Virus record (IMG/VR): IMGVR_UViG_3300027818_000001
Span: 1-39,214 of that record
DNA length: 39,214 nt
DNA from: a virus
Taxonomy: Duplodnaviria > Caudoviricetes
Strand: one strand, 5' to 3'
Of the stretch, positions 6,250 through 38,077 are shown one piece after another. A program made the position numbers and the translations under genes. Numbering within the stretch: the stretch's first letter is position 1; the number at the start of each line of letters is the position of its first letter. The notes under the pieces were generated by a model, which had not been told where the DNA came from, searched no databases, and worked only from the letters and a program-made list of their open reading frames with translations.

Positions 6250-6420
6250 TCAAGTTTTTTCTTGGAATATTTTATAGAATTCATCCAATGACATTGCTTT
6301 TTGTGTTATTGGTTCATCTATTGATTTATTTAATTTTTTAAGACTTCTGCCATCAATATGCACTCTTGTTTTATTGCCATTTGGGAATACAAAACATAAC
6401 GGATATTTTTTATCTTTCAT
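6250..6420 (-). CDS. 56-aa hypothetical protein (not in the ORF track)
   Basis: GGAGGTG RBS; MKDKKYPLCFVFPNG...IFQEKT. Confidence 0.55.
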   Translation of the reverse strand: MKDKKYPLCFVFPNGNKTRVHIDGRSLKKLNKSIDEPITQKAMSLDEFYKIFQEKT

Positions 6421-21480: not shown

Positions 21481-21864
21481 TTACTGTGCCCCGACTTTCT
21501 GCCAGCTTCTAAAATCAACCGCCGCCGTTGCTGTATGTACCACATATTGAGCGGTACGCCCCCACAATCCCGCGCGGGATGGTGTTGTTCCTGTATCAAC
21601 GTATGGCACAAGGAAATCGCCGGTTACAAATAGATTGACCGCTTCAACTGTTCCTGTTGAATATATCCGCACGAATGAAGTGCAATCAGCGATTAGCGGA
21701 TCAGTGGATGTGCTGTTATAAACAAAGAACATATTACCCCGATAATTCCACTGTACTTTATGGGTTGTTGTGTCTGCGTCGACAGAATACCACTGAACAC
21801 TATAAAAATCAGCATGAGCAAATGATGCAAGAAATAACAATAACGGCAATAATAATTTTTTCAT
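21481..21864 (-). CDS. Exported beta-rich protein
   Basis: Signal peptide MKKLLLPLLLFLASFAHA|D; GAGG RBS. Confidence 0.7.
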   Translation of the reverse strand: MKKLLLPLLLFLASFAHADFYSVQWYSVDADTTTHKVQWNYRGNMFFVYNSTSTDPLIADCTSFVRIYSTGTVEAVNLFVTGDFLVPYVDTGTTPSRAGLWGRTAQYVVHTATAAVDFRSWQKVGAQ

Positions 21865-22046
21865 GTTTCCTCTTTTTTCGGTTCTTCTTCCTTTAATAAT
21901 TTTTCAAGAACTTCAATAGCTCCAATCGTCGCATTGATTGTCGCAATACACTGCTCCCGTGCTTGTGTCAACTGCTGTAGGTTCTTTTCGTGCTTCTCTT
22001 TGTTTGCTTTCAACTCTTCCAACTCTTTCAAGATTTTTTCTTTCAT
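21861..22046 (-). CDS. Small coiled-coil protein after the tail fibre
   Basis: MKEKILKELEEL...GAIEVLEKLL; ATGA overlaps; AAGGAG RBS. Confidence 0.6.
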   Translation of the reverse strand: MKEKILKELEELKANKEKHEKNLQQLTQAREQCIATINATIGAIEVLEKLLKEEEPKKEET

Positions 22047-23065
22047 GCAGGTAGTCTCCTTTCGAGTTCTGATATTCTTGCTTCCGCTTCTTCCGCCCAG
22101 TGAGCAACACCGATTGATATTTTGCATATATCTTTGCCGTAAATTTCCTCTTCCTCTTTAGTTCCTCTGATACCTTGATAAGGTTTCAAAGGTTTCTTTG
22201 CATCTTTTAATGCCCATTTAAGGAAATCATTCCCGTTTATTTTTTCTTTGTCTTTAAAGTCATTGTCTTTTTTTATATCGGGGGAGAATGTACTCCATGC
22301 TTGATCGGCATATGCAGTACCATTTTTATTAAAATAATAACGAAGAGTTGCATTGTAATATAACTGTAAAGATGTCCCAGATGTTTCAGGTATTATTGTC
22401 CAAGCATATCCGGCATCGTAACTATGAGTTAAAATTAAACCCTTTGGAGTAGCGCCGACATAATTAATATTTACATCACCATAAAAAGTAGCTTTTTGAG
22501 ATGCGTCCAATCGCATGGCAATCGTCCCGCCGGTATAAAAATCCATTACATCTCCTGATGATTCGACTATAAAAGTATTACCGGAATCATCAAGATATAT
22601 TTTCTTTGTTGGATATGTAGAAAATCCTAACGGCGCACCTAATCCCTGCGTTGCTGAAACCCATGCCGCCACACTGCCGCCCGCATACCATTCACAATAA
22701 TTCGCACTCGCTTCTCTTATGTATGTATCATCTCCGCCATCAAGATATAACTTTTTTGTTGTTTCAATTATCACATTAACAGCAGGGTTAAAATATGTAT
22801 TGTGCATTTGGCATACAAGCGTGTCGCCGCAAACAACATATATTTGATTAGCATCGTTTTCTTTTATATAGGTATCTCCGCCACCGTCAAGATATAATAA
22901 TTTTGTCGTCGCAATCTTCAACCCTTCACTGAGTACCGGAGCTGATGAAAAAGTTTTTATTCCAGCAATCGTTACGTCGCCTGTTAATAAATCGGTGCGT
23001 AGATTGTTGTATTGCGATGCGAGAGCAGTCGTACCTGCACTAACATCTGAACTTAAAATTGCCAT
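22043..23065 (-). CDS. Tail fibre / receptor-binding protein
   Basis: TIAGIKTFSS fibre motif, three K(K/L)xYLDggxxTYI repeats, C-terminal coiled coil. Confidence 0.75.
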   Translation of the reverse strand: MAILSSDVSAGTTALASQYNNLRTDLLTGDVTIAGIKTFSSAPVLSEGLKIATTKLLYLDGGGDTYIKENDANQIYVVCGDTLVCQMHNTYFNPAVNVIIETTKKLYLDGGDDTYIREASANYCEWYAGGSVAAWVSATQGLGAPLGFSTYPTKKIYLDDSGNTFIVESSGDVMDFYTGGTIAMRLDASQKATFYGDVNINYVGATPKGLILTHSYDAGYAWTIIPETSGTSLQLYYNATLRYYFNKNGTAYADQAWSTFSPDIKKDNDFKDKEKINGNDFLKWALKDAKKPLKPYQGIRGTKEEEEIYGKDICKISIGVAHWAEEAEARISELERRLPA

Positions 23066-23085
23066 GATAATTCACCTCTTTAAAA

Positions 23086-23559
23086 TTATATTTCCTCAAT
23101 AGATATTTCCGAATCAATCGTCATTTCTTCGCTTGCTGTTTTTGTGTACGTCCCGTCAAAATTAAGATATGCAAACATCGTGCCGGTATCAGCAACCCCC
23201 GTTGCCTCTTCTCCGAATAACGCATACTGTGTCAATGCGTCGTTAGCTTCTGCGTCAGTAAAATATGATGTTATCGATAATACGTTGTCCGTGCGGGAAA
23301 ACGTAGAAATTGCTTTTCTGAATACCTCGTCATTCATAATCGTATCACCAGCAACCGGCGTTGATGCACCTATTCCTACCGCTCCGTAAGTTATAATACC
23401 TTCGTCTGTATGCACCTGTTCATCTGCCAGCCGGTCAAGGATAGCGTATATCCCTACGTTCGGGATTATGTTTTTAATCCATTTCGAGCGTCGTTTTATC
23501 CGCCCTGTTTTTTTATCCGTTAATGTTATTCTGTGTCTGCCGACAATACTAATGTTCAT
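23086..23559 (-). CDS. Tail tip / fibre-attachment protein
   Basis: KNII.N.G, AVG.G, LF...A, K...E..TI pattern; position after the hub protein. Confidence 0.6.
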   Translation of the reverse strand: MNISIVGRHRITLTDKKTGRIKRRSKWIKNIIPNVGIYAILDRLADEQVHTDEGIITYGAVGIGASTPVAGDTIMNDEVFRKAISTFSRTDNVLSITSYFTDAEANDALTQYALFGEEATGVADTGTMFAYLNFDGTYTKTASEEMTIDSEISIEEI

Positions 23560-23562
23560 ATT

Positions 23563-25176
23563 TTATCCCCATTTAAAAAGATTCCAGCGTCCCCGATTCG
23601 GCGTTGTCTCTTCGTCATTACTCCATACTGCCGCCGCTCCCGTATCCATCCACACATTTGTTATTTCTGCGGTCATTCCCAGCGCTGGACGGTATACCTT
23701 GAACACATTCAATATTTCATCTTCCCGTTCGATAATCTTCCGCCCGCTGTCGTATAATAATTTTAAGAAATCGTTCAATCCTTTTAATAACGTCGCGAAT
23801 GTTATCTCATACTCAAACCTGCCGCTTCCCAGCGATGTCATGGACACTTCTTGAATCAAATATTGAGCATTAACCCCGCGCGAAGGAATATTCACCGTCA
23901 ATAACTGCCCGCTTCTATACCCGTGCTGATTCGTCATGAATGAACCTTCAACAAGCGGATTTGAGTATTGGTCTAATTCACCTTGCGCCCGCGCGCGCGC
24001 CTGTGCTTTCGTTGCTATTGTTTCATCAACTATTAACGGCGATTCGTATATGCCGTTGCCGCCCTCATACAGTTTCATCATATCAATACTGTCTTGGTCA
24101 TCAACCTGTGATATTATCGGGACCCTGTATTTATACGTTATCTTGATTTTATGCCCTGCTGTCAATACCGCATGGTCAAGATTCTTGATAAGTTTTTCTG
24201 ATACATTAACAACAAAATCTTTGCCTGTAGTATCAATATTATCTATGCCAAGAGTCTTTTCTGCATATCCCCCGCCAGAGTCAACGTAAATCTTTATCGT
24301 GTCATACGGCGTATAATCGCATTGAAACGAATCCTGTGTCCCGTCCGCCGATCTTACCTGTGTATATAATTCAGATAACGCATACCCGCCCCGCACCGTT
24401 ACCCTATTTTTTAATTCTGATTTGTCAACGGAAATCTCAAGTCCGCTATATAACCCGCTTCCTGCGCTTTCTGTCAATTCATACGGCGCGGTATTCGTTC
24501 CCGGCGGGAAAAAATGGATGTTCTTATCATAGTCAACGTACCAATCATAACCAATCAGTCCCGCCAGCTCTTCAATACATTCAAACGGGTATTTGTAATT
24601 GAATGAAATATAATCTACTGTTGCGCCGTCCTCAACGTATGCACACCCTAATTCAGGACACCAATTTTCAACAATATCTTTTATAATCGCGCCCGCCGTA
24701 TCATCCTCGTAGGTCTCTGTAACCATTCGTTTATTAAGGCATTGCGTGTAATCGGAGCAGGCAACCTCGTATTGATATTTGCCTTGTGCGTATTGTATCT
24801 GCGGAGTCTCATCAATCTTGCCGCCGAATATTAATGATGGCGTTGCGCCGGCTGATGTTTTCATAAATACTAATACTTCCTGCCCCACAACCGGCTTATT
24901 ACTACCGCTGTCATCGTTTATAATGAATCCGCACGAATCAACCTCTTTGGTTAATATATTTGTTATCGACAATGACCCTAATTCTATCAAATCTGTTTTA
25001 TCAACCCCGTTTATCAGTATTGTTATTAATCCATAATCAATCGCTGTTCCCACACTTGCCAACGGAAGCCATGAATTACCAAGTCGTATATATGCACTCC
25101 CGTTACTCGGTTTTATCCATAAGCGCCCTGTAAATATATTCGTCGGCTCTGTTTCGCTGTATAATCTCCAATCCAT
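23563..25176 (-). CDS. Baseplate hub / tail tip protein
   Basis: IFGGKI, WYVDYDKNIHF, NRVTVRGG, SGQLLTV hub-like pattern; downstream of the tape measure. Confidence 0.7.
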   Translation of the reverse strand: MDWRLYSETEPTNIFTGRLWIKPSNGSAYIRLGNSWLPLASVGTAIDYGLITILINGVDKTDLIELGSLSITNILTKEVDSCGFIINDDSGSNKPVVGQEVLVFMKTSAGATPSLIFGGKIDETPQIQYAQGKYQYEVACSDYTQCLNKRMVTETYEDDTAGAIIKDIVENWCPELGCAYVEDGATVDYISFNYKYPFECIEELAGLIGYDWYVDYDKNIHFFPPGTNTAPYELTESAGSGLYSGLEISVDKSELKNRVTVRGGYALSELYTQVRSADGTQDSFQCDYTPYDTIKIYVDSGGGYAEKTLGIDNIDTTGKDFVVNVSEKLIKNLDHAVLTAGHKIKITYKYRVPIISQVDDQDSIDMMKLYEGGNGIYESPLIVDETIATKAQARARAQGELDQYSNPLVEGSFMTNQHGYRSGQLLTVNIPSRGVNAQYLIQEVSMTSLGSGRFEYEITFATLLKGLNDFLKLLYDSGRKIIEREDEILNVFKVYRPALGMTAEITNVWMDTGAAAVWSNDEETTPNRGRWNLFKWG

Positions 25177-25179
25177 GCC

Positions 25180-25491
25180 CTATGCCCCTGCAATAAGTAT
25201 GTACTGCCCGAATAAGTATAAATACGCCTGTTTAACGCTTTCCTTGCACCATATCCAGCCGGTTTGTATAGCATCGTCTGGCAGTTCTTCCTGCACAATA
25301 ACATTAAGATAATGCTTATCCGGCGTTGTCTCCGCCACATATACCCCGCCGCCAACTAATACAACCCACTCATCAAGCCAAATATATGCGATGTATTCAC
25401 TTGTCCCTATCGGATTAATCCATATCTCGCCATACCCTTGCTCAGTCGGCTCTGTTATGCTCACGGTAATTTCTCGATAATATATCGCCAT
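25180..25491 (-). CDS. Small tail protein with two EP..G.IW..P/AYI repeats
   Basis: TAATG-coupled to the tape measure; internal duplication. Confidence 0.6.
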   Translation of the reverse strand: MAIYYREITVSITEPTEQGYGEIWINPIGTSEYIAYIWLDEWVVLVGGGVYVAETTPDKHYLNVIVQEELPDDAIQTGWIWCKESVKQAYLYLFGQYILIAGA

Positions 25492-27128
25492 TACAGTTTT
25501 CTGCCCCGCTTAAATTCCCTGTATATCTCATTCCCGATAATTTCCGCCTGCGCGTGCGCCTCCCTGCGGGAATGCACCTGATTGACGTTGATAATAATGC
25601 TTGACGCGATATTATTCGGCGGGATAATCGTCTCCCCGCCGTGTACTATTGCAAGCTGTGGCTGTCCTAATAACCCTGGTACAATCCCGCCTTTATCAAA
25701 ATTCATTAATGATTTTAACCCTATCATCGCCGCTGTTGATGCCGCTATAACAGTGCCTATTTGATACGCCGCCGCTCCCCAAGTAACTGTACTATTCATA
25801 ATTGCAATAGCAACAGATTTTATTTTTTCAGCCGCTAACTGCTGTATCAAATAACTAATCATGTTTTTAATAGCTTGCCCGTATGCCGCAGCAACTGATC
25901 TCCATGTCGTAGTTTCGGCGTTTAGAATAATACCCAGCGCATCAGACACAACCATTGCAAACTTATTCGCCCACATTTCACGATTCCGCGCAAGGTCTTC
26001 TTCCCGTTTTGATTTTGATTCAAGTAATTCTGCAAGTAATTCTTCGACTTCTATTTCTCTTTTTTTATCAGCTTCACTTTCTATATTTTTAATCTCCGTC
26101 CGTGCTTCTGAATTGACCCGCATTATCTCTGTCAATGCTGTTTCTGTCTCGGCTGTTTTTTCAACTTTTAGATTTTCTAACTCGGTGAATTGTTTGCCGT
26201 ATTCTGATATTTTATTCCCCATTTTCTTGAATCCGGCAACCGATTCTTTTATTAAATCCTTATTAAGAGTTATTATACCAACTATAATGCCGGCATAATT
26301 AGCTAATGCGTCAGTCATTAAATCAATCGCTGACTTTACGCCCAAACCTATTTTTATAAACCATGTAAAAACATTCCCCAGCGTCTCCGTGATTTTCGCC
26401 TGATTCTTTGTGTCACTAAAAAATTTCTCCATAACCGGCAAGATAGCACTATTAACTAAATTAAAAAAATCGTTTAATACCGGCAATAATGCCATACCTA
26501 CGGTCTCATACAAATCACCAATGCGATTCGTTAGCGCTTCTGTTTGCCCGATAAACGTGCCGCGCTCCGCTTTTGCCATTTCAAACCCTTTAGCCATTGC
26601 GTCATTAGCGATAGCGGCTTTTTCTGTCTCGGTCTTTGCTGTTCTTAATGCGGGGATATATCGTCCCAGCATACTGTATTCGCCTTCCGTAGCCAGCGCG
26701 ACAAGTTTCATACTGGTATTCAAATCAACACCGAACGCCTTGCTCAACCCTATTGCTGACATCGTAGAGTTTTCTATCTGGTCACCTGCTATTCCCATTT
26801 GCAGCCCTAACTGCATCAAATTCATAGTCGCTTCATCACCAACGGTAGTAACTTTTTGAATGTTTGTCGCAAATAATGATAACTTATCTATTGATGTTTT
26901 TGTTTCATTGCCGGTTAATTTTATGGCATTAGAAAGCAACATCTGCGCTTTTTCCTGTTCACCAGCCGCCATAATGATTTTCTTGCCCCAATCAACGACG
27001 GTCTTTGCCGCATTAACAACATCGCCAAGCGTAACAACAAAACCCTTGAACATCGAATCAGCTTTTTTTATGCCGCTATCATCAAATTGTATACCAAGTT
27101 TTACAAAAAAATCAGCGATTTCACTCAT
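25491..27128 (-). CDS. Tape measure protein
   Basis: Helical A/G-rich; C-terminal FDKGGIVPG...AIVHGGETIIP; follows the chaperone pair. Confidence 0.85.
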   Translation of the reverse strand: MSEIADFFVKLGIQFDDSGIKKADSMFKGFVVTLGDVVNAAKTVVDWGKKIIMAAGEQEKAQMLLSNAIKLTGNETKTSIDKLSLFATNIQKVTTVGDEATMNLMQLGLQMGIAGDQIENSTMSAIGLSKAFGVDLNTSMKLVALATEGEYSMLGRYIPALRTAKTETEKAAIANDAMAKGFEMAKAERGTFIGQTEALTNRIGDLYETVGMALLPVLNDFFNLVNSAILPVMEKFFSDTKNQAKITETLGNVFTWFIKIGLGVKSAIDLMTDALANYAGIIVGIITLNKDLIKESVAGFKKMGNKISEYGKQFTELENLKVEKTAETETALTEIMRVNSEARTEIKNIESEADKKREIEVEELLAELLESKSKREEDLARNREMWANKFAMVVSDALGIILNAETTTWRSVAAAYGQAIKNMISYLIQQLAAEKIKSVAIAIMNSTVTWGAAAYQIGTVIAASTAAMIGLKSLMNFDKGGIVPGLLGQPQLAIVHGGETIIPPNNIASSIIINVNQVHSRREAHAQAEIIGNEIYREFKRGRKL

Positions 27129-27487
27129 TATCGCACCACCCTCGTTTTATTCGTTTTATTTTTCCGCCGTATATGCCCGCCTAAATGCCGTAATATAGCC
27201 AGCTCATTTTTCTCTATACGCTTTTTCTCATCATCGGTCATACGATGCGCTTCGAATTTATTCCGCAACTTCTCAATATCTTCTTTACTTACTCCATGTA
27301 ATGACAACTGAAACATATTATTTTCAAACTCAATTTTGCTTACTTCTTCTGCCATAATCTTAATCCACGAAAGAGGATGATCCAGCACTTCTTCTATCTT
27401 GTAGTTTAAATAATGCGCGATAATAATACATATTTGTATCAGCTCTTTTTCACTGCCGGATTGATTGCGCCCATTATCCGGCTGATG
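27128..27487 (-). CDS. C-terminal (gpT-like) part of the tail assembly chaperone, reached by -1 frameshift
   Basis: The -1 frame is open from the A9C site through IIAHYLNYKIEEVLDHPLSWI to the stop at 27128. Confidence 0.72.
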   Translation of the reverse strand, partial: HQPDNGRNQSGSEKELIQICIIIAHYLNYKIEEVLDHPLSWIKIMAEEVSKIEFENNMFQLSLHGVSKEDIEKLRNKFEAHRMTDDEKKRIEKNELAILRHLGGHIRRKNKTNKTRVVR

Positions 27488-27867
27488 TTTTTTTTTAGAA
27501 TATCAATGTCATTATGTTCGCATAATAATGCAATGATATTTGTCGTCTGAATTATCCCGCAATTCTTTTCAAGAAAATCAAAATCATCCTCGTTTAATAT
27601 GCAGCCGATAAACCGGTATAAATCCTTATCATCAAGCAATTCAAGCATGGTTATAATATCCGCCGTGTTTGTTTCATTTCCTGCGCTGCGTTCTTTTAAT
27701 TCTTTGAGTTTTTTTTGACTTGATATGATTGTCCGGGCAAGCAGTTTGCCTATTATTAAGAATTGTTTTAACGATAATTCACCGATATAATATTTCCTAT
27801 CGGCAATAATAACCTGTTCTTTTTCCTGTATCAGTATTTCTTTCCCTGCGTTTTCTACGTTTTCCAT
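27439..27867 (-). CDS. Tail assembly chaperone (gpG-like)
   Basis: Between tail tube and tape measure genes; GAAAGGA RBS; slippery CTA AAA AAA AAC near the 3' end. Confidence 0.78.
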   Translation of the reverse strand: MENVENAGKEILIQEKEQVIIADRKYYIGELSLKQFLIIGKLLARTIISSQKKLKELKERSAGNETNTADIITMLELLDDKDLYRFIGCILNEDDFDFLEKNCGIIQTTNIIALLCEHNDIDILKKNISRIMGAINPAVKKS

Positions 27868-27962
27868 AGGATTATTTCCTTTCATAAGAAGGCTGGGGGA
27901 GTTTGGGGAGAACCGCAATTCATCATTACGGTTAACTCCCCCATGTCCTTAGTCCCCTGATA

Positions 27963-28838
27963 TTAAGCCGTTACGCTGAACTGCTCGATTTTCACTGCCG
28001 CTAAATTATTACCGGCAATATCCTGTAATCCCGTAGTAATAATTGCCTGCAACGAATCGCTTGCTGTCCAGTTATCCGTCGGCGTAAATACTATTGTTTT
28101 TGCCGCCTTATTGTAAACAATAGTGCCTGCCACAAGCGTCGCTGTCGCCGGTACAGTGATATTCATTATCAATACCGTCTCGCCGTAAACAACCGAATTC
28201 TCGTCTATCTCTCCTGCTTCCGTGATTGTCCACGTTACCGTGCCCTTTGTAGCTTTTGTTACCGTCCCGCCGTCAACAGGCGTCGAAAGCGCAACAACCG
28301 GCGCGGTCGTATCAACCCCGCTGTCAGTAACCTCAAACATCTGTTCGTTTGCCGCCAGCGACGTGTCCTGCAATATCAAAAATTCAAACTCTATCAAGGT
28401 TTTATCATTTTTCTTGTACGCATGACCTGCGCCGCTGATATTGATAACCTTATAAAATTCGTATTTTCTGGTATTGCCGCCGACACTGTTGCAGTTAATA
28501 AACAACGTCAATTCTGTTGCTGTCGGATTGCCGCCAACAGTTAATACCGACGCAACAAGCGCCCCCGCAGGATAATCCATAGCCAGCCGCAAATTATCCA
28601 GCGTCGCTTCCGCAACAGAGAACTTTACGGTCGGACGTTCTTTGATTTTATCAACGCCAAGAATCCCGATATATTGGTCTGCCGTGCGCTCATAATACTC
28701 GCGGGGATTGGTTATTTCAATACCCCCCTCCGTCAATCCTAACTCTGTGCAAGCTCCTTCTGCCGTCCCGTAAACCCCTACTTTTACCGTGTTATTGGTC
28801 TGTAAACCTACCACGATATTGTCTGCTGTCGGTCCCAT
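27963..28838 (-). CDS. Major tail (tube) protein with C-terminal Ig-like domain
   Basis: LGLTEGG, AEATLDNL; C-terminal DTTAPVV...FTP...GLQDIAGNNL (Big_5-like). Confidence 0.85.
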   Translation of the reverse strand: MGPTADNIVVGLQTNNTVKVGVYGTAEGACTELGLTEGGIEITNPREYYERTADQYIGILGVDKIKERPTVKFSVAEATLDNLRLAMDYPAGALVASVLTVGGNPTATELTLFINCNSVGGNTRKYEFYKVINISGAGHAYKKNDKTLIEFEFLILQDTSLAANEQMFEVTDSGVDTTAPVVALSTPVDGGTVTKATKGTVTWTITEAGEIDENSVVYGETVLIMNITVPATATLVAGTIVYNKAAKTIVFTPTDNWTASDSLQAIITTGLQDIAGNNLAAVKIEQFSVTA

Positions 28839-28840
28839 GG

Positions 28841-29053
28841 TTAATTACCCCCTTTTATATTTTCTTTTTTTACGTCTATGATTATCCCCTGCTCAATCAA
28901 TGATTCTTTTATATTTGTAATTGCATGAGATTCACCGTTAATGAACCCATTAGTAAACCCCCTGCGATATTCGAATCTGCCGCCTATCATATAAAACCCA
29001 AACATCCCGATTATAAACACGATTGTAATTATTATCACTTCTTTTAATTTCAT
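28841..29053 (-). CDS. Small membrane protein
   Basis: N-terminal TM segment, then YRRGFTNGFING. Confidence 0.6.
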   Translation of the reverse strand: MKLKEVIIITIVFIIGMFGFYMIGGRFEYRRGFTNGFINGESHAITNIKESLIEQGIIIDVKKENIKGGN

Positions 29054-29055
29054 TA

Positions 29056-29409
29056 TTATTTATTCCCTGTTTTTAAAAATACTATTATGGTTATAATCCC
29101 GCCGACAATAGCTATCAAATGAGGCAGCGTCGCTAACAATGAAATGTAAACGGTATTCCTAAATGACGATTGACGGATAGTGTCCATTTCATCACGGTTC
29201 GCTTTTGATTCAAGCAGGATACGGTTTTCCATAGTGTCTTTTGAATGAGCTTCACATTTCATGTCAATACCTTTCCGCCATTCGTTCATGGTAATTCTTA
29301 ATTCAGCGACATCATTCCGAATACCGTCCATTTTATCCATGACAAACGACATCTGCACGTCTTGCAGTCTGTGCGCAGGTGTTTTTTCTAATTGATCTTG
29401 TGTGCTCAT
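29056..29409 (-). CDS. Coiled-coil protein with C-terminal transmembrane segment
   Basis: Heptad-like middle; hydrophobic ISLLATLPHLIAIVGGIITIIVFL. Confidence 0.6.
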   Translation of the reverse strand: MSTQDQLEKTPAHRLQDVQMSFVMDKMDGIRNDVAELRITMNEWRKGIDMKCEAHSKDTMENRILLESKANRDEMDTIRQSSFRNTVYISLLATLPHLIAIVGGIITIIVFLKTGNK

Positions 29410-29419
29410 AAATATCCTT

Positions 29420-30466
29420 TTACTCAAGAATTAATATTTGTGACGCGCCTTTTGATGCGGCTGGCGGCGCTGCCGCCGCATATTCATCTGCGCTTATATC
29501 CCAAGTCGCTCCCTCTGCATCTCCATCAATATCTACATCGTACGGGCTTCCCGCATCTGTTCCATGATCAATACAATCCGCTCCAACTTTTAAATGAAAA
29601 TTTTCACTGCCTCCGGTTAAACTTGTAAATTGACTTGAAGATGTTTTTTCAACTTGGTTGTTGCTTCCCGGAGCAGCTGCGCTGTCTGTCGCGTTATACC
29701 CCGAACCAGCACCCCATGATTCAGTATCGCTGCCGAAATTGTATGGACAATCGAATACTGCATTATTAATCACACGCGATTCACTTCCCGTACCGCTTCT
29801 GTCTCTAATCCCGTATGAGTAATCTGCGCCATAACCGACAATAGTATTGTTTACAATATAAGTATTAGCATCCCCGCTGAACATAAGAATCCCGCCAGCC
29901 CAATCCCTCGCGCAATGCCATATTATATTTCGGTAAATCAATTCACCCGAACTAACACGGGATATGCCGCAGGTATATGCGCTTCCATGCCCGTCAATCA
30001 GATTGTACCGATATGTATTATGGTCGCTTGAGTTTGAGTGCCCAATCCCGTTACTCTCGGCAGATGTTCCTTTCGGGTATATTTGCAAATACTCTATAAC
30101 CGTGTAATGGTCATCAACCGTAATCACTGTCCCGTCTGAAGTAGGCACAATCCGTGATTTTGAATCACTCCATACACCCGCGTGCCGGTCAGATGCCGGC
30201 ACGGTGATTTTCATGTATTTATCGGATGCTGTCGTTGAACCGTCAATCACAACCCGGTCATCAAGCGCGCCGTCCTCGACATACAATTCAGCGGTTTCTA
30301 CCTCTCCTAATACGCCGTCTTTGGCATCTTCCCATAGAGTTAGAGTATTATAATTCTCTCCTGTTTTATTCACCGTTGAAACAGCGGCAAATATCGCATT
30401 ATTTATCAGTATAAAAACTGATAGGAGAATCAGTAATCTTGTCCTTAATATCCTCTGCAATCTCAT
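29420..30466 (-). CDS. Exported right-handed beta-helix (pectin-lyase-fold) protein
   Basis: Signal LLILLSVFILINNAIFA|A; YRYNLI, IYRNII, IVNNTI, VINNAV rungs; FHL...CID.G...DIDG...WDI.ADEY tail. Confidence 0.72.
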   Translation of the reverse strand: MRLQRILRTRLLILLSVFILINNAIFAAVSTVNKTGENYNTLTLWEDAKDGVLGEVETAELYVEDGALDDRVVIDGSTTASDKYMKITVPASDRHAGVWSDSKSRIVPTSDGTVITVDDHYTVIEYLQIYPKGTSAESNGIGHSNSSDHNTYRYNLIDGHGSAYTCGISRVSSGELIYRNIIWHCARDWAGGILMFSGDANTYIVNNTIVGYGADYSYGIRDRSGTGSESRVINNAVFDCPYNFGSDTESWGAGSGYNATDSAAAPGSNNQVEKTSSSQFTSLTGGSENFHLKVGADCIDHGTDAGSPYDVDIDGDAEGATWDISADEYAAAAPPAASKGASQILILE

Positions 30467-30857
30467 CTTTAGTAAACTCTCCTTTTTTAGATTCTTCTTT
30501 TAATGCGTCTTTTTCGTCTATGCTTATTAAGTCAATACCGTGTCTTCTGTATTTCAGTATGGGCTGCTTGCCATAAATATTTACTTCGCCTCTTATTGTG
30601 TCTTTTAACTGCAGTCTGTCGAGTTCACTCATCCCGCTGATTTTTATAATCTTGTACAGTTTTTTTTCATCTTTAGTCGGCACATATTGCGGGGTGCAAG
30701 GCACGATTTCTACTATATCACCCGTATCAGACATCCCCGCGACTTGCTCTGCGTTTTTATAATCCTTGATTTTAGTTTCTTTCCGGATATAAACCCAGTA
30801 ATCCTGCGCTGATAATGAACTGCTAAATAACAAAATAAGAAATAATAATTTTTTCAT
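30399..30857 (-). CDS. Exported hypothetical protein
   Basis: Signal peptide MKKLLFLILLFSSSLSA|Q. Confidence 0.7.
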   Translation of the reverse strand: MKKLLFLILLFSSSLSAQDYWVYIRKETKIKDYKNAEQVAGMSDTGDIVEIVPCTPQYVPTKDEKKLYKIIKISGMSELDRLQLKDTIRGEVNIYGKQPILKYRRHGIDLISIDEKDALKEESKKGEFTKDEIAEDIKDKITDSPISFYTDK

Positions 30858-31168
30858 TTTCTTTTTTCCTTGTTTAAATCGAAATAAGGTCTAAGAATTT
30901 TTCTTATATCAATTTTTAATAAATCAACAATATCATTTATTAATTCATCGTCAATTTTCTTACTTGTTTCTTTTGCTATTCCTTCAAATCTATTATTTTC
31001 TAATCTTTTTATTTTTTCCTTTATAATCGCCATTTCGTATCGGTTGCATTTTATATCAGCATTCATCAAATTGTGTTCAATATCATTCATAGCATTATAA
31101 TGAGCAATTCGTTGTCTTGTCGAAACACACGCAGGTAATAAAAATATACATAGTAATAGTTTTTTCAA
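30854..31168 (-). CDS. Putative lipoprotein
   Basis: MKKLLLCIFLLPA|C lipobox; helical, K-rich body. Confidence 0.6.
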   Translation of the reverse strand: MKKLLLCIFLLPACVSTRQRIAHYNAMNDIEHNLMNADIKCNRYEMAIIKEKIKRLENNRFEGIAKETSKKIDDELINDIVDLLKIDIRKILRPYFDLNKEKRK

Positions 31169-31491
31169 TCTACTGCCTCAATTTTGTACCCGACTGTCTT
31201 TTCATCGATAATTTCTTTAGTAACTTTTTTTGTTATTGGTATTACCTCATACTCCTGCAATTTACTAGTTTTAAAATCGTAACTGTAAATTTTGTCAGGA
31301 TTAGAAAATTCCCATTGCTTACCCATCGTTAAATCTATTTTCTTATTGATAAATTTTGTTAATTCTTTTTCTGAATTAAAAATCTCAATATGTTCAACAA
31401 CCCCTTTAGGATTAAAATTATTTATATTAGTATCAAAAGTCATTATTGGTAAATAACCCGAAACCCAAATACAAATAAAAATTATTTTCAT
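31165..31491 (-). CDS. Hypothetical protein with hydrophobic N-terminus
   Basis: TAATG coupling to the fibre stop supports the start at 31491 (MKIIFICIWV). Confidence 0.55.
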   Translation of the reverse strand: MKIIFICIWVSGYLPIMTFDTNINNFNPKGVVEHIEIFNSEKELTKFINKKIDLTMGKQWEFSNPDKIYSYDFKTSKLQEYEVIPITKKVTKEIIDEKTVGYKIEAVD

Positions 31492-34400
31492 TAATCCCTC
31501 GTATAACTCCCATAAATCATCAATGATGTAATATTTCCCGTCCATGACGTTGGCACTAAAAATAATCCATAATTTGCGGGTACTGTTGCATCTGCGAAAG
31601 TACCGCCGCGCCATTCTGTTGCGGGAACAGTAATGTCACCGCTCCAAATATCTGTACCAGCGGCATTGGGAGATGCTTTTGCTCGTTGCTCGAGCATACA
31701 TACAAATGTCGTGCCGTCATTGCATATCGCAGTCATTGTCGTCCAGGTCACGGCATACGATAAAAATTTTGATATTTGATACCCTTCACCAGCAGTTAAA
31801 TGGTTCGGCGATGAAATACAAACGCCGAAATCTTCTACACCAAGTGCATCATAAATATCATCTTTTTCTGGCACACCGGTATCACTATTCCAGCCCGAAC
31901 CAAAAGTCTCATTTACTCCAACCAATATTTTGTTTGATAAATTATCGTAGTTAGTTAGATAACCCGATGTCGCCGCCGCTAAGTCTGCGAGAGCAATCGT
32001 TCCATCAGTAATCTCGCCTGTAACAACTGCTTTATTACTTATATTCGCCCAATTTGTGAACCAGCCTGTTGTTGCGGCAGTCATATCCCCCGCAACTATT
32101 GTCCCGTCTTTTATGTCAGCGCTTACAATCACTGAATCAGCAAGACTGCCTTCTGTTACCTTCGGCTCGTATGAAGGCACTTCTGTCAAATTAGCCCATG
32201 CTGTAAGCCACCCTGTCGTTGCCGCTGCTAAGTCAGCCAGCGCGATAGTTGCGTCTTTAATATCTGCACTCACGATAACAGAATCAGCAAGTGAACCTTC
32301 CGTAACAGTCGCTTGTTTCCCGTTAATCTGGTCTTGAGCATTACTCGATAATGTCGCGATATATTTTAATTCTGCATCTGATACAGAAGCGTTAGAAGCA
32401 TAAGTCGCCCCAGCAACATTCCCTGTTGCGCTAAAATTGCCTGCACTATAAAATTTGAAAGTCTCTACATCTGCAGTACCTAAAGTAAACAGAGTGCCAG
32501 ACGACTTTAACATCCAATACTCTTCCGTATCATCATAATCCTCTGAATTATAAAGTTTTATTGTCGGGCAACCTTTCGCATTATCACCGTATAAAGTTAA
32601 TCCTCCATCCGTTGTATCGTCAACACCTAATGACATTGTTAACATCCCGCTCGTTGCAAAATCATATACTTGGTCGCAGTTCGGGATATGCGTTACATCC
32701 CCGTTTGTCGGTGTCGCTGTTGAAATACAAATTAACGCTGTGCCTTCTGGACTCTCTTCACCATTAAAACCATTTCTTAAATTAATACTAACGGTCGGAC
32801 TTGTTATCTCAACGCCGTCAATAGCAACCTGTAAGGTCGATGCTCCGCCGCCGCCTACCCCTTCATTATCTATTCCGTCGGCAAATCCTGCTGGGACATT
32901 AGCAAAATTCGCCCAATTAACAAACCAACCAGTCGTAGCCGCTGTCATATCTGCGGTCGTTATCGTAGCGTCTTTAATGTCGGCACTTATAATCGTAGAA
33001 TCAGCGAGTTTGCCTTCTGCGATATTTAAGTCTTGAGCGCCTAAATACAAAGGCACATTAACTGTCATGGATGATGGTGTAATTTCAGCTTGTCTTGTTC
33101 CGTAAGTTCCCGCTGCTGAGAAAACTGTATTGTAACTTTTGAGTGTTAAAATGGCGGTCGGGGCACCTAAATTTACAAAAAGTTGGTCTTGGTCACTATC
33201 AAATACATTCAAACCCCCGGCTAAGATTCTAACGTAATCAGTTGCTGGAAAAGTATATCCGGTGTTTGTGTCATCTCCATTACTATTGTAATAATTTAAA
33301 GCATTTACAGCACCACCAAATTTTGCTGTACTTAGTACCTCCAACTCACCTTCTACTCCCAAATCTCCTACGCCGTCAAGTGTTGCAAATCCTGCTGTTG
33401 ACGCACCTACGACAACACCAGAACCATCAGTAACTATAAACTCTCCTGTGCTTGTTAAACCAGAAGAAAGAGTCATAGGCACATTAACCGTCATGGATGA
33501 ACCTGTACTCTCAAACACTTTCGTATTGTTTGAATACCATCTACTTGTTATACCTTCACCTGTGATGTAGTTGTTAGTGCCTGGAATATACAAATTTCCA
33601 TCTATTTCAGCATCACCAGCCACATACAAATCCCCTGAACCTGTTACATAGGTTGGCGTTCCAGAACCTACATAAACAGCATTGTTTGCCATAACTCTTA
33701 ACCCCGACCGAGAATTTAACGAACTATTAATATTATAAATGGCTATATCGCCATCAGCAACATAATTCTTTATATTCAAAGATTGATTTTTATCATTAAC
33801 TCCTACGTTATATAGAGAATTTGTCTGAGCTATTACACCCGAAGTAACACCATTTTCTTGAAAAACAATAGAATTATACTCATTAGTGGGAGTTGCATTC
33901 AGGACAAGATATGTAGAAGAATGATCTGAAACTATATCTAAACGCTTTGTAATATAAGATTGATCTCCATGAACTTCTAACATATCTCCAACAAACAAAT
34001 CACCACTACCATTTATATAAGTTGGCGTTCCTGTTCCTAAATGCAAAGGCACACTAATAATCGCGGATGATTCTGAAATCTCTGCTTGTATATCCCCGTC
34101 ATTCGCAGGGTCGAAACGGATAAATGTACCGTTTGTGTCTATGTAATCTGAACTAACATAAGTAGTAGCCCCTGCTGATAATTCATTTAAAAAATATGTG
34201 CTATCAATACCGTCGAATAAATCCGAGTCAGCCGCCTTGCCTGCAATCCCCAAATATGTAGTGGATAGTGCGCTAATTTCGTTTATTGTGAGGGTCAGAG
34301 GGGTATAACTGCTTAATCCAGCAGAAGTCGCAAAATAGGCGGCATTATGCCCCTGTAGCGCGCCTGCATTGGTCGCATAGGTAGCTGTTGATGTCACGGA

Positions 34401-34751
34401 TGTCGCCGATATGTTTCCAGCTCCCGTTATATCAAACCCGCCCATTATTAATGTCGTTGTCGCTATGTGATTGCCGAGATTGTCAGCTCCCCCTGCCGCC
34501 GCCGCTGTTAAATCATAAATAGTGCCATCACTATTAATGAATTTGATTTTTTTATCAGTATCAAGATAAGTATATCCTTTGCCTGCCGCCGGAATACCAG
34601 GCGGACTCATTGTTGAATAAATAACGCTATACTTAAATGACGGGCTTGATACATTCGTTATATAATCATCTTCATTGATGTTATAAACTATAGCCCATGA
34701 AGTTTGAGTTAATAAGATAAGCAGTAATGCTTTACTGATAATGTATCGCAA
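31491..34751 (-). CDS. Large fibre-like repeat protein with signal peptide (about 1,086 aa)
   Basis: GGAAGGGGG RBS before TTG 34751; MRYIISKALLLILLTQTSWA|I; DNLGNHIAT, AADSDLFDGIDS, ADSxIxSADIKDxTI repeats, LSSNAQDQINGKQ. Confidence 0.75.
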   Translation of the reverse strand: MRYIISKALLLILLTQTSWAIVYNINEDDYITNVSSPSFKYSVIYSTMSPPGIPAAGKGYTYLDTDKKIKFINSDGTIYDLTAAAAGGADNLGNHIATTTLIMGGFDITGAGNISATSVTSTATYATNAGALQGHNAAYFATSAGLSSYTPLTLTINEISALSTTYLGIAGKAADSDLFDGIDSTYFLNELSAGATTYVSSDYIDTNGTFIRFDPANDGDIQAEISESSAIISVPLHLGTGTPTYINGSGDLFVGDMLEVHGDQSYITKRLDIVSDHSSTYLVLNATPTNEYNSIVFQENGVTSGVIAQTNSLYNVGVNDKNQSLNIKNYVADGDIAIYNINSSLNSRSGLRVMANNAVYVGSGTPTYVTGSGDLYVAGDAEIDGNLYIPGTNNYITGEGITSRWYSNNTKVFESTGSSMTVNVPMTLSSGLTSTGEFIVTDGSGVVVGASTAGFATLDGVGDLGVEGELEVLSTAKFGGAVNALNYYNSNGDDTNTGYTFPATDYVRILAGGLNVFDSDQDQLFVNLGAPTAILTLKSYNTVFSAAGTYGTRQAEITPSSMTVNVPLYLGAQDLNIAEGKLADSTIISADIKDATITTADMTAATTGWFVNWANFANVPAGFADGIDNEGVGGGGASTLQVAIDGVEITSPTVSINLRNGFNGEESPEGTALICISTATPTNGDVTHIPNCDQVYDFATSGMLTMSLGVDDTTDGGLTLYGDNAKGCPTIKLYNSEDYDDTEEYWMLKSSGTLFTLGTADVETFKFYSAGNFSATGNVAGATYASNASVSDAELKYIATLSSNAQDQINGKQATVTEGSLADSVIVSADIKDATIALADLAAATTGWLTAWANLTEVPSYEPKVTEGSLADSVIVSADIKDGTIVAGDMTAATTGWFTNWANISNKAVVTGEITDGTIALADLAAATSGYLTNYDNLSNKILVGVNETFGSGWNSDTGVPEKDDIYDALGVEDFGVCISSPNHLTAGEGYQISKFLSYAVTWTTMTAICNDGTTFVCMLEQRAKASPNAAGTDIWSGDITVPATEWRGGTFADATVPANYGLFLVPTSWTGNITSLMIYGSYTRD

Positions 34752-35484
34752 CTGTACCCCCTTCCCCTGCTTCAACGCTTCCCACGGATTTTATTATTAT
34801 CCCAAAATTCTCAGTCGCCGTATAAATTATATCGGTTATATCTGTAACCTGATTACGCTGTCCAGCAATAAGCGTCGCAACCCGTGATTGTTCAACATTA
34901 TCTTTCAGTAAATCAATGGTTATGTTCGCGCCTGTCGGTGCGGTATCAAGATGTAACCCTATCTTTTTAATTGTTATCGCCGCAGGGAAATAAAATCCGT
35001 TGAATATGATTTTTTCATCAATAAATGTCCCGAATGCCGGTATAGTCAAAACTTTATTTAACACGTCAATATACCCCCTTGATACTTCGATATATTTAAA
35101 ATCTATTATCGCCACATGATGAAAAACATTGAGAGCAGGGTCTTTGAAACAACTGCCGCCAACACATTTTGACGTTAATACGCGGTAATCTGTTGATGTA
35201 ATTAAATTCTGCGCTTCATCCTGCCTGTCTAATAAATAAGAAATCCGGTCCCGTATCGTTTTCGATAAACTTACGCTGTCATCAATACAATTAAAAGCTA
35301 TTGATATTTCGCTGATATTCTCTTCATTCGACCCGAAAGCATTGGTATTAAATATAATGTACGGTGTTACCGCTCCATGCGGCGACTGCTCTGGGTATAT
35401 CTTGCTATTCGTCGGCACGGCATTAAGCAACGCGGAAAGCGTATCATCATTTTTAAGGTATGCAATCACGTCCGTTTCAATCAT
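34732..35484 (-). CDS. Tail terminator (DUF3168-like) with extra C-terminal beta-sandwich domain
   Basis: IE..V.AYL..D..L..L, KIYP...P...PYI; follows the gp10-like gene; about 115-aa extension. Confidence 0.72.
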   Translation of the reverse strand: MIETDVIAYLKNDDTLSALLNAVPTNSKIYPEQSPHGAVTPYIIFNTNAFGSNEENISEISIAFNCIDDSVSLSKTIRDRISYLLDRQDEAQNLITSTDYRVLTSKCVGGSCFKDPALNVFHHVAIIDFKYIEVSRGYIDVLNKVLTIPAFGTFIDEKIIFNGFYFPAAITIKKIGLHLDTAPTGANITIDLLKDNVEQSRVATLIAGQRNQVTDITDIIYTATENFGIIIKSVGSVEAGEGGTVAIHYQ

Positions 35485-35834
35485 GGTTTAATCTTTTTTA
35501 TCTCGCTTTTGAGTTTTTTAATCATCAAATCTGTCCCTGCTTTTAATCCAGGATATAGATACGGTTTCCCGTGCGCGCCAAATTCCTGATACGGCGCATA
35601 GTGTACATTCGTTCCCACAATCCCCGAATGTTCGTTTTTATTATCAATAAATTCATGCGTTATAGAGCTTCTTAATCTTCCCGTATCAACATTGACTTCT
35701 TTTTTTGCCGTACCTTCCGCTTTCAATGTCGCATCTCTTACAATATTTTTTACCGTTTCGTCGCATTTCTGCATGAGAGATAACAGTTTTTTCAATACTT
35801 CTTTGTCGCCGACAACCTGCGTATAAATTTGCAT
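35481..35834 (-). CDS. HK97 gp10-like neck protein
   Basis: VDTGRLRSSI, VGTNVHYAPYQEFG, PYLYP. Confidence 0.88.
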   Translation of the reverse strand: MQIYTQVVGDKEVLKKLLSLMQKCDETVKNIVRDATLKAEGTAKKEVNVDTGRLRSSITHEFIDNKNEHSGIVGTNVHYAPYQEFGAHGKPYLYPGLKAGTDLMIKKLKSEIKKIKP

Positions 35835-36172
35835 TATGCTATTTTCTCCGTTATTACTTCCAAATGATGCACGCCTATCGAATCGTATATTTCATCAACC
35901 AGCAATATTGCATAGGTATCACTGCCGACAATCAACCTGTGATCTTTGCTATTTAATGTTACCCCCGCTTGTACCTTCATAAAAAATATATGTGTCGCTC
36001 TCTCGTAAACCTCACGCGGTGTGCCTACCAATCCACCGCCCGCACCATCAATCCTGCATGACACATCAGTAACTGCATCCGCCCAGCTCTCTATCATTTG
36101 CCCATAACTATCCTGTGTCTCCGTTTTTAATTGTATCGTGCAGGTAGATATACTTAAACTATCAAATGACAT
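35834..36172 (-). CDS. Head closure / head-tail joining protein (SPP1 gp16-like)
   Basis: TIQ...TQDSYG...W, Y.I..V, HHLEV. Confidence 0.8.
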   Translation of the reverse strand: MSFDSLSISTCTIQLKTETQDSYGQMIESWADAVTDVSCRIDGAGGGLVGTPREVYERATHIFFMKVQAGVTLNSKDHRLIVGSDTYAILLVDEIYDSIGVHHLEVITEKIA

Positions 36173-36756
36173 TAGATATTTCTCCGCCGATGATACGTTA
36201 ATATTCCCGATATATCAGCAGGTAATGGTATCCCGTTTACTAAAATATCGCTTTTCCCATACGTTACAGAATATTTACCCATGCTTTCAGAGTTAATACC
36301 TGCCTTACCTTTTTGTGAATATACAATCCCGCATATCTGCGCGCACGCGTATTTTATATCAGCAGGGATTGCCGCAATAAGATAACCTGCTGTATAGGTT
36401 ATCCGGTAATTTCTTTTGCCTATAGCAGTTTTCCCGCGCATATAAACATATCCCTCATCAAGATACGGTATGTAATCAGTGTCTACCGTAAATGATTGTA
36501 ATTGCACATTGTTATAGGTATCCCAGCTTTCAACCAGCGTCAATACGGTAACCGGATAATTTTTCAGCCAGATATGTCTTTCCCCGTCCCCGTCATACGC
36601 TTCTTTGGTATATGCTTGAGACAAGAATTTCCTGTTTGTAAATGTCTCGATTATATCCGAAGCTATGGCAATAAGCGTGGTTTTAAGTGCGGCATCCGCT
36701 ATGGTTATCTGTAGAATTTGCTCCAATTCAGCCGACGTTATTAATGCGTCCGACAT
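36172..36756 (-). CDS. Head-tail connector (adaptor) protein
   Basis: AS..IE.FTNRKF, YPV, ITYTAGY..IPADIK.A, SESMG.YSVTY. Confidence 0.85.
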   Translation of the reverse strand: MSDALITSAELEQILQITIADAALKTTLIAIASDIIETFTNRKFLSQAYTKEAYDGDGERHIWLKNYPVTVLTLVESWDTYNNVQLQSFTVDTDYIPYLDEGYVYMRGKTAIGKRNYRITYTAGYLIAAIPADIKYACAQICGIVYSQKGKAGINSESMGKYSVTYGKSDILVNGIPLPADISGILTYHRRRNI

Positions 36757-36768
36757 ATAGTTAACCTC

Positions 36769-37365
36769 TTACGGTTGTAATTGTTCGTAAAAATCCGCGT
36801 ATATCCCTATATCCGCCGCTGTTTGAGCTGTAACATTACGGACAGCGATGAGATACAAAGATTCTGCGCCGACATATTCAGCGCCGTCTTTGAATGCCTT
36901 GTCAGAATTAAAACTTTGAGCATTAGCGGGTATGAAGATTGTCGGCGATATTTGTGTCCCAACCGTCGTTACCGTCGGTGTATGGTACATTATCGCTGTT
37001 GCAGTATCAGCTATTTTTTGATTGAGATTATACGAAGGAACTACTGTCCCGCTTGATGTAATAACAGGGGTCCGGTAGATATTCATAACAACCGGCTGGT
37101 CTGATACTATCGTCAATGTCGCATGGATTTCGTCCGCCGTAAATGCCGTTGTTGCTACATCAACCATAAAATACGCTGTTGCACCAGCCTCGACATTATC
37201 ATATAAATGCCCTGTGCGAAAAATTTGCCCGAGATGCACTTTTGTATGAGCATCCGTTATCATGCCTATTGACCGTGCAGGTTTTGCCGGTACTTGCCCG
37301 CCGAATGAATTTACTGCTGATAATCCCGTAATAAAAACAGCTAATACTAAAAACTTTCTGAACAT
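36769..37365 (-). CDS. Beta-rich protein with signal peptide in the head-neck region
   Basis: MFRKFLVLAVFITGLSAVNSFG|G; H..VH.G..F motif; GAGGGGG RBS. Confidence 0.7.
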   Translation of the reverse strand: MFRKFLVLAVFITGLSAVNSFGGQVPAKPARSIGMITDAHTKVHLGQIFRTGHLYDNVEAGATAYFMVDVATTAFTADEIHATLTIVSDQPVVMNIYRTPVITSSGTVVPSYNLNQKIADTATAIMYHTPTVTTVGTQISPTIFIPANAQSFNSDKAFKDGAEYVGAESLYLIAVRNVTAQTAADIGIYADFYEQLQP

Positions 37366-37385
37366 AAATGCACCCCCTCACATTT

Positions 37386-37437
37386 AAAAAAGCGGGCTAT
37401 CTGCAAGCTATAAGATAACCATACAAATAACCCGCTT
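37386..37437 (-). terminator. Long G-U-rich hairpin terminator after the capsid block
   Basis: AGCGGGTTATTTGTA...TGCAGATAGCCCGCT followed by TTTTT; mismatches resolve as G-U pairs only on the minus strand. Confidence 0.78.
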
Positions 37438-37467
37438 CCTATCTCACACTTTTGCGATCTGCGATCG

Positions 37468-37860
37468 TTATCGGTAAAATATCGTTACTCTTACCGTACT
37501 GCCTGTTGACGATTTCCGCACACACAAATCTTCAAGCTTCAAATAATCCGAGTGTATCGGAAATTGTATCTGCACAATCCCCGGCGAATACGTTAACGTT
37601 GAAACATCTACCGCAAATGCTGTCGTAATCGTGGTCGTTGAATCAGCATTCTCGTAAAACGTAACTGTCTGCAATACTTCTGGCAGACTGTTCGAGATAA
37701 TGATTTTCTCAATCCTCGCCACACCTGATATTTGCGCGCTTGTCGCGCCTACTTCCGTAACTGCGTAAGTCGTCGCCGCCACATAGTACGGTATTACACC
37801 ATCAGCAAACCCTAACATCGGCAATAAAATTATTGCCATAATACTTATTAATTTACGCAT
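37468..37860 (-). CDS. 130-aa beta-sandwich-like protein with signal peptide, at the decoration-protein position
   Basis: AAGGGAGGAG RBS before ATG 37860; MRKLISIMAIILLPMLGFA|D. Confidence 0.72.
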   Translation of the reverse strand: MRKLISIMAIILLPMLGFADGVIPYYVAATTYAVTEVGATSAQISGVARIEKIIISNSLPEVLQTVTFYENADSTTTITTAFAVDVSTLTYSPGIVQIQFPIHSDYLKLEDLCVRKSSTGSTVRVTIFYR

Positions 37861-38077
37861 ACTTTCTCCTCCCTTTTTTGTATTGTTTATTCGGACTCCT
37901 ATCAGTAGAATTAACTTCTTTGCTCTCGATAGTCTCGATAGTCTCGATAGTCTCGATAGTCTTAATAGGTTCAATTAAGTGAGCATATCGCCGAGCTTCG
38001 GCATCAGTAAATTCCCTGATTTCACCCTTTGCGAAAGTAAGATAGCCGCCGAAAGCTTTTTTAATTTCGCACTTCAT
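37853..38077 (-). CDS. Small capsid-adjacent protein
   Basis: TAATG-coupled to the capsid stop; F.KGEI.E....A..Y motif; IET repeats. Confidence 0.7.
   Translation of the reverse strand: MKCEIKKAFGGYLTFAKGEIREFTDAEARRYAHLIEPIKTIETIETIETIESKEVNSTDRSPNKQYKKGRRKYA
37924..37968. repeat. 9-bp tandem repeat (TCTCGATAG)x4 plus one degenerate copy
   Basis: Read directly; encodes IKT-IET-IET-IET-IES. Confidence 0.9.

Follow-up and report, generated by a model that had tools for sequence, protein, structure and literature searches.

Predicted signal peptides on candidate decoration and fibre proteins of a tailed phage: possible assembly of a virion in two compartments

Tailed phage core particles assemble in the cytoplasm, and a phage whose late genes encode virion-like proteins with signal peptides therefore raises the question of where those proteins go. 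Such genes are found in IMG/VR record IMGVR_UViG_3300027818_000001, a complete virus sequence of 39,214 bp that has direct terminal repeats; the window discussed here is the whole record. Its minus strand carries all recognised genes, which include replication genes and methylases, terminase, portal, protease and an HK97-fold capsid, followed by siphophage-type neck and tail genes (adaptor, head closure, neck, terminator, Ig-bearing tube, tape measure, hub and a 340-aa fibre) and a lysis cassette comprising an M15 peptidase and a Pal/OmpA lipoprotein. An initial annotation had proposed that six late proteins with Sec leaders mature in the periplasm and join the particle at lysis, or else remodel the infected cell envelope. 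We find that Sec export with signal peptidase I cleavage is very probable for the leader-bearing proteins as judged from their sequences, and we lean towards the view that at least some of them join the particle. The proteins concerned and two leaderless virion genes are as follows.

38077–39214, minus strand: HK97-fold major capsid protein, leaderless; its reading frame crosses the record end
37468–37860, minus strand: SP130, a 19-aa leader and a 111-aa single jelly roll with a conserved S-T-T-T loop; candidate high-copy capsid decoration protein
36769–37365, minus strand: SP198, a leader and a phrog_5335 jelly roll; the family is leaderless in four cultured phages
31491–34751, minus strand: SP1086, fibre-like; a leader, an N-module of ~70 aa, a mosaic shaft with three ADSxIxSADIKD repeats and a swappable C-terminal domain
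31165–31491, minus strand: 108-aa protein with a weak hydrophobic N-terminus, called by the home-made rule described below
30854–31168, minus strand: 104-aa predicted lipoprotein with a non-canonical lipobox; homologue in locus L003
30399–30857, minus strand: SP152, a leader and an unknown domain; a leader-bearing homologue in L005/L058 also precedes a beta-helix-like gene
29420–30466, minus strand: SP348, a 27-aa leader, a probable beta-helix, a Pro/Ala linker and a C-terminal QILILE strand
22043–23065, minus strand: 340-aa tail fibre, the leaderless control, with neither leader nor S-[S/T]-x-T motif
21481–21864, minus strand: SP127, a leader and a domain with weak similarity to the start of an exported 479-aa fibre in relative G002

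All six leaders and the lipobox-like site reported by the initial annotation are present, with leader starts at 37860, 37365, 34751, 30857, 30466 and 21864. The start at 37860 is an ATG with GGAGG upstream and that at 34751 is a TTG that relatives also use; upstream starts at 37974 (a TTG called by the open reading frame (ORF) finder) and 34775 were ruled out by ribosome-binding sites and homologue starts. Leader calls rest on a home-made rule, not a trained predictor, that asks for a basic n-region, an uncharged 9-residue stretch with mean hydropathy of at least 1.9, and small residues at −3/−1 or a lipobox, with thresholds fixed before the scan. The rule was positive for 10 of 29 late genes versus 1 of 35 early/packaging genes. 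It gave no call for capsid, adaptor, head closure, neck, terminator, tube, tape measure, hub or the 340-aa fibre, in agreement with the earlier statement that core virion proteins lack leaders. Beyond the proteins named before, the Pal/OmpA lipoprotein (20427–20945) was positive, as were 31165–31491 and 28841–29053, which are weak or membrane-anchor-like among the ten positive late genes; the hydrophobic stretch of 28841–29053 is more likely a membrane anchor than a leader. The lipobox claimed at 30854–31168 does read LPA followed by C after a TTG at 31168, although the Pro at −2 is non-canonical; the L003 homologue reads LLPC followed by C. The beta-helix claimed at 29420–30466 is backed by a homologue match (24% identity, E 5e-7), although that homologue's own Pfam Beta_helix score falls below the curated cut-off. 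Most leader-bearing genes overlap their late neighbours, as had been noted, and the SP348 leader is encoded within the last 68 bases of SP152, with a similar overlap in L005/L058.

The leaders keep their form across relatives. Within the 130-aa family the leader is 33% identical versus 64% for the mature part, and lower in 10 of 10 pairs; in the 198-aa family the values are 43% versus 70%, with the leader lower in 15 of 15 pairs. The basic n-region, hydrophobic core and small −3/−1 residues are retained while the leader sequence turns over. A hydrophobic leader is found in 127 of 129 members of the 130-aa family, a count biased to leader-bearing matches because the search profile included leader columns; the other two are gene calls that start inside the mature domain. 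This set consists of 128 profile-search representatives, minus four fragments and one repeat-protein false match, plus six closer relatives. By eye, all 16 sequences of the 198-aa alignment have a leader. The homologue comparison proposed with the initial annotation thus shows leaders kept across the 130-aa family, while the 198-aa family is leaderless in four cultured phages.

SP130 lies in a unit with the capsid gene.

37853–38077, minus strand: g74, a 74-aa leaderless post-capsid gene, DUF7210-like in relatives and fused in frame to the SP130 leader in some
37386–37440, minus strand: long RNA hairpin then six U, closing the capsid-g74-SP130 unit (z −4.3)
27893–27943, minus strand: second strong hairpin, after the gene for the tail tube, the other high-copy product (z −4.0)

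In all 15 of 15 close loci with downstream sequence present (capsid identity 32–75%; L005/L006 and L022/L023 are near-identical pairs, and L014 ends inside the leader), the capsid gene is followed two genes on by a leader-bearing 130-aa relative, and the gene also lies in the capsid unit in L067/L068. Among 30 distant loci (capsid identity 21–37%), 11 were examined and the 8 fully read showed no convincing leader at that slot; in the distant locus L032 one 291-aa gene there is positive by the home-made rule. The G005 provirus has a different head and tail module with leaderless fibres, and still an exported jelly roll directly follows its capsid gene, the only leader-bearing gene found in its virion region. 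Of 11 gaps tested behind the 130-aa gene, 10 contain a hairpin at z ≤ −2.2 and 8 one at z ≤ −3; the gap after SP127 has none (z 0.1). We infer that the hairpin at 37386–37440 is a terminator or an mRNA-stabilising stem and, because strong hairpins follow both SP130 and the tail tube, that SP130 groups with the capsid as a likely high-copy product. A terminator scan of the window returned 19 sites versus 15.6 expected, with the two long hairpins not among them, and a promoter scan was at chance level. These scans bear on a lysogeny-accessory role of the Lom/Bor type, for which a promoter and terminator belonging to the gene itself would be expected in a temperate phage.

Several members of the 130-aa family begin with ~50 residues like the post-capsid protein and continue into a hydrophobic stretch and cleavage site. 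Within a set of 8 sequences, the N-termini of P0066, P0129 and P0056 match the 74-aa gene of the window at E 2e-5 to 1e-3; P0124 matches by profile alone and P0070 not significantly. True fusions occur in L067 (10001–10516) and L068 (about 2975–3487): both have a ribosome-binding site ahead of the fused start, and the GTG that might act as an internal start in L067 is missing from L068. The post-capsid gene and the SP130 relative of L009 and L015 are in frame, with an internal ATG present. The exported 130-aa gene is duplicated in tandem in L017 (7758–8579).

Structure prediction gave mature SP130 as a seven-strand jelly roll (predicted local distance difference test (pLDDT) 91). Its best viral fold matches are mostly uncharacterised tailed-phage proteins of ~90–150 aa (template modelling (TM) score up to 0.69), and its Atlas look-alikes are viral proteins of 100–108 aa, about the mature length, that score 0.93–0.94. 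Solved structures matched with Z of 7.6 (nucleoplasmin), 6.9 (spore appendage), 6.6 (YomS), 6.4 (HFTV1 turret; root-mean-square deviation (rmsd) 2.5 over 82 aligned residues) and 6.3 (XepA). SP198 (pLDDT 83) matches the phrog_5335 profile at E 1.4e-13 and the LIMEzero gp57 fold at E 3.5e-13 and TM 0.74. Its solved matches are led by XepA (Z 9.2, rmsd 2.6, 107 aligned) and include the HFTV1 turret chain (Z 8.8, rmsd 4.0, 113 aligned), with GOLD domains level with these. Based on these models, SP130 and SP198 are predicted to be jelly rolls of the XepA/turret-base type. The fold search of mature parts found phage and turret-base jelly rolls, and cellular jelly rolls match equally. Chain TD of HFTV1 was assigned as the base protein by its 114-aa length. 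That protein, gp30 (PDB 8qpg), sits on capsid hexamers according to the main text of 10.1101/2024.12.09.627619, in which the term "signal peptide" does not occur; gp30 is like SP130 and SP198 in being a small XepA-type jelly roll on a tailed-virus capsid, whereas it belongs to an archaeal virus and, with middling Z, the likeness is one of fold only. Cultured members of phrog_5335 (LIMEzero gp57, HATV-2 gp10, RDJL6 and vB_PsaM_M1; tblastn E 0.005–0.2) resemble SP198 in fold and profile and differ in having neither leader nor S-[S/T]-x-T. Disulfide maturation was considered as a reason for export and rejected, with one Cys in the window's SP130 and none in SP198; in the 130-aa family Cys53 and Cys94 co-occur (17 members with both, 13 and 15 with one, 85 with neither; p 1e-5, uncorrected for kinship).

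Fibre-like architecture is seen in SP1086. Most close relatives encode a leader-bearing mosaic fibre of 626–1379 aa after the terminator gene, with a common N-module of ~70 aa, and exchangeable leader-bearing payload genes come after this fibre. The SP1086 N-module is constant among relatives while the distal part is swapped. SP1086 itself has no Pfam, PHROG or PDB match; its relatives match the unnamed phrog_13518 and LamG. The C-termini of five payloads, most of them unrelated to each other, consist of a Pro/Ala/Thr linker and a short hydrophobic strand of the QILILE type, which is likely a docking tag. In G002 the exported cassette is placed after the leaderless fibre, and the 479-aa protein there combines an SP127-like start (E 3e-4) with an SP1086 C-domain (E 1e-20); the Atlas gave no lead for SP127 (scores below 0.8). 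The tail terminator (34732–35484, minus strand) has an extra C-terminal domain of ~115 aa that is kept in L003, L005, L009, L015 and L019, and this domain is a candidate anchor for the exported fibres. L018 has in its place two copies of the terminator and a separate leaderless gene. Homology between the terminator and fibre C-domains was not accepted, since it consisted of one out-of-register 26-residue match.

We also considered why these proteins might be exported. A short motif, S-[S/T]-x-T, first picked by eye from S/T-rich runs in the same sequences and then tested against shuffles in 30-residue blocks, occurs 119 times versus 33 expected in 40 leader-bearing proteins of the clade and 8 times versus 9 expected in 69 leaderless late proteins, one of which is SP348 called from a wrong start and held no motif. 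The excess holds by group (16 versus 4.4, 9 versus 1.7, 65 versus 19 and 29 versus 8.3 expected) and in 17 roughly non-redundant proteins (54 versus 15.7, or 20 versus 7.6 without the two richest), and of all XY.Z patterns with at least six occurrences SSxT comes first and STxT second. Within the window the motif occurs 11 times versus 3.7 expected in nine exported proteins, a count reached by 0 of 500 shuffles, and twice versus 1.9 expected in 16 leaderless proteins. It is nearly fixed in one SP130 loop (S in 109, S/T in 128 and T in 91 of 130 rows) and absent from all four leaderless SP198 homologues. The held-out set from G005 is one exported protein of the same family and has little power. 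Neither the Bacteroidota sequon D-[S/T]-[AILVMT] (72 observed versus 82 expected) nor N-x-[S/T] (140 versus 150) is enriched, and the phage has no STT3 gene. Because the motif is sequon-like in form and confined to exported proteins, we give an even chance that it is a host O-glycosylation site and the reason for export.

The host is likely a member of the Elusimicrobiota. Among 28 proteins looked up, the two that carry an organism name are both from Elusimicrobiota genome bins (NLO90846.1 and MDD2772757.1); both are only distantly related within the family, and a genome bin may include stray viral contigs. A prophage search in species genomes found no relative with either alignment. The lysis cassette bears on the host envelope.

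20979–21317, minus strand: M15-type peptidase, probable endolysin, leaderless
20427–20945, minus strand: Pal/OmpA-family lipoprotein (PF00691, E 1e-18)

A Pal/OmpA lipoprotein points to a diderm host; its lipobox scored below cut-off (LPAM_1, E 0.003). Assigning the host through Pal itself was uninformative, with 38–61% identity and few named homologues. The gene sits between the probable endolysin and a holin-like gene, is absent there in G001, and could replace spanins or tether the outer membrane.

Based on these results, the export half of the initial proposal is well supported, with conserved leaders and a motif restricted to leader-bearing proteins. Of its two outcomes, envelope remodelling appears less likely than joining the virion, given where the genes lie, the hairpin that closes the capsid unit, folds found only in phages and the fibre-like architecture. 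The core particle, including the leaderless 340-aa fibre, would assemble in the cytoplasm, while accessory proteins from the same late transcripts would be exported by Sec, released into the periplasm by signal peptidase I and folded there, possibly with glycosylation at S-[S/T]-x-T. When the inner membrane fails at lysis, particles would meet this periplasmic pool and bind. SP130, made in capsid-like amounts, would bind the capsid, SP198 would be a lower-copy head or neck part, SP1086 would dock via its conserved N-module and payloads such as SP348 via their C-terminal strand. The genes for the small helical lipoprotein and the membrane proteins probably serve the envelope or lysis instead. 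In its fullest form, which we put forward tentatively and regard as rather doubtful in its entirety, an Elusimicrobiota tailed-phage family would build its particle in two compartments, with secreted decoration and modular fibres that are O-glycosylated at S-[S/T]-x-T by an undescribed host system and snap on at lysis; fused decoration would tether head assembly to the export site, and particles would wear host glycans.

Envelope remodelling would have the exported proteins never bind particles, as recycled virion folds acting on the infected-cell envelope in the manner of XepA-like lysis helpers, superinfection receptor masks or adhesins. We consider this unlikely, although lipoproteins and small membrane proteins share the exported-gene cluster and the phage retains a conventional leaderless fibre. 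Fold matching places XepA and YomS near the top, and XepA is reported to be cytotoxic and exported and to be missing from mature PBSX particles, with no signal peptide named for it in passages of PMC6834076; the jelly-roll fold thus supports both outcomes, since the HFTV1 turret base is on the capsid and XepA is exported yet off particles. PBSX XepA and SPbeta YomS (PDB 6i56 and 6i5o) are lysis-cassette genes of phages with a monoderm host, whereas SP130 and SP198 carry leaders and follow the capsid gene 15 kb from the lysis genes. SP130 keeps its place directly behind the capsid gene across different head modules, lies within a hairpin-closed unit and in some relatives is fused to the post-capsid gene; the variation of SP1086 resembles that of a receptor-binding fibre; and SP130, SP198, SP1086, SP348, SP152 and SP127 have, by the rule, no lipobox and no predicted membrane segment after the leader. 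Besides the XepA precedent, the search bias in the leader count and the choice of the motif by eye, several observations weigh against particle association or the wider proposal. SP130 has no sequence match in PDB or cultured phages, and SP1086 and SP348 have none to cultured phages or solved structures; all fold Z-scores are in a middle range, and similar values are reached by cellular jelly rolls (nucleoplasmin, GOLD, spore appendages). For the leaderless homologues, whose virion role is putative, we found no paper on LIMEzero gp57 or Bcep gp01. In G005 the 5-base gap after the jelly-roll gene has no hairpin, 5 of 9 exported window proteins hold no S-[S/T]-x-T, and the named Pal homologues (3 of 85 rows) are Desulfobacterota-type, not Elusimicrobiota. 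The proposal also does not explain how particles would gather parts from the periplasm in the short time that lysis takes.

Two further explanations keep part of the proposal. The exported proteins could be released as soluble fibres or lectins, free helpers that link particles with cells or matrix once lysis has occurred and that bind loosely or transiently; the five unrelated payloads have only a linker and a short C-terminal strand in common and no dedicated leaderless anchor was identified for them, but a fixed site on the capsid agrees better with the conserved linkage of SP130 to the capsid gene, and we judge free helpers quite improbable. Less probable still, the leaders would be uncleaved membrane tethers or hydrophobic assembly arms on proteins that join particles in the cytoplasm. 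Here the signal calls come from the home-made rule alone, and some relatives have ~50 cytoplasmic-type residues before the hydrophobic stretch and no internal start, yet an extended N-terminus still permits N-in/C-out insertion. The n-region, hydrophobic core and small −3/−1 residues are kept despite sequence turnover, and confinement of the motif to leader-bearing proteins points to a different compartment. Periplasmic export followed by binding of at least some proteins to the particle remains the reading that we favour.

Known systems share parts of this arrangement. Filamentous phage coat proteins are virion proteins that use host Sec and signal peptidase, but they are membrane proteins of non-lytic ssDNA phages extruded through the envelope, whereas the window encodes soluble exported parts of a lytic-type HK97-fold tailed phage. 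Bacteroidota general O-glycosylation targets a short Ser/Thr motif, D-[S/T]-[AILVMT], on exported proteins; the motif found here is likewise a Ser/Thr motif enriched in exported proteins only, but it is S-[S/T]-x-T and the modification is putative. Lambda gpD and T4 Soc/Hoc are decoration proteins that add to mature capsids; unlike SP130, known capsid decoration proteins are cytoplasmic and leaderless. T5 pb10 and the KHP40 cement protein (7dou) are similarly small, made with the capsid and added to mature capsids. Late docking is feasible in that decoration proteins add to finished heads with very high affinity, as PMC10766600 describes for T5 pb10. In the literature searched, which left most subscription papers and supplements outside, we found neither such a motif nor a tailed phage with Sec-exported virion parts, and passages of PMC12014285 (marine phage modifications), PMC13288928 (Cellulophaga phage methylation) and 10.1101/2023.11.21.568195 (giant genes) contain nothing on exported virion proteins.

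If particle association is correct, it would add a step to the taught model of wholly cytoplasmic tailed-phage assembly, and phages would gain host glycosylation and oxidative folding for host recognition or camouflage. The annotation rule that a signal peptide means a protein is not structural would then be wrong for such genes. As a directly testable lead, the motif points to a protein-modification system not yet described, in a phylum with hardly any cultured members, and it may mark the host of orphan phages; the 198-aa family provides a natural experiment, with one fold that occurs with and without leader and motif.

Contigs from two other runs match parts of the region at 99%+ without indels. 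The runs containing this DNA are from freshwater sediment and soil, and none listed is an RNA run. Positions 1–130 repeat 39090–39214 at the record ends, so that the true capsid start would be close to position 155 and the 374-aa ORF as listed is short at its N-terminus. The window proteins scanned include no integrase; relative G002 encodes one and relative G005 is a provirus. Viral contigs scanned with the tail tube gave no relative. A 142-aa early gene (6410–6838, minus strand) with a coiled-coil body starts MNKEG followed by MTLFQLLMFVMILG, which we take to resemble a type IV prepilin leader, except that the usual Glu at +5 is a Gln; it has no Pfam N_methyl match. A short Trp-rich module is common to a 103-aa gene (25180–25491) and the hub N-terminus (start of 23563–25176), both on the minus strand, and the G001 hub lacks that N-terminus. 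A helicase-methylase fusion lies at 12288–14480 and a radical SAM gene at 9417–10214. The C5 DNA methylase (18239–19294, minus strand) has 26% GC versus ~39% for the genome and is thus likely a recent insertion.

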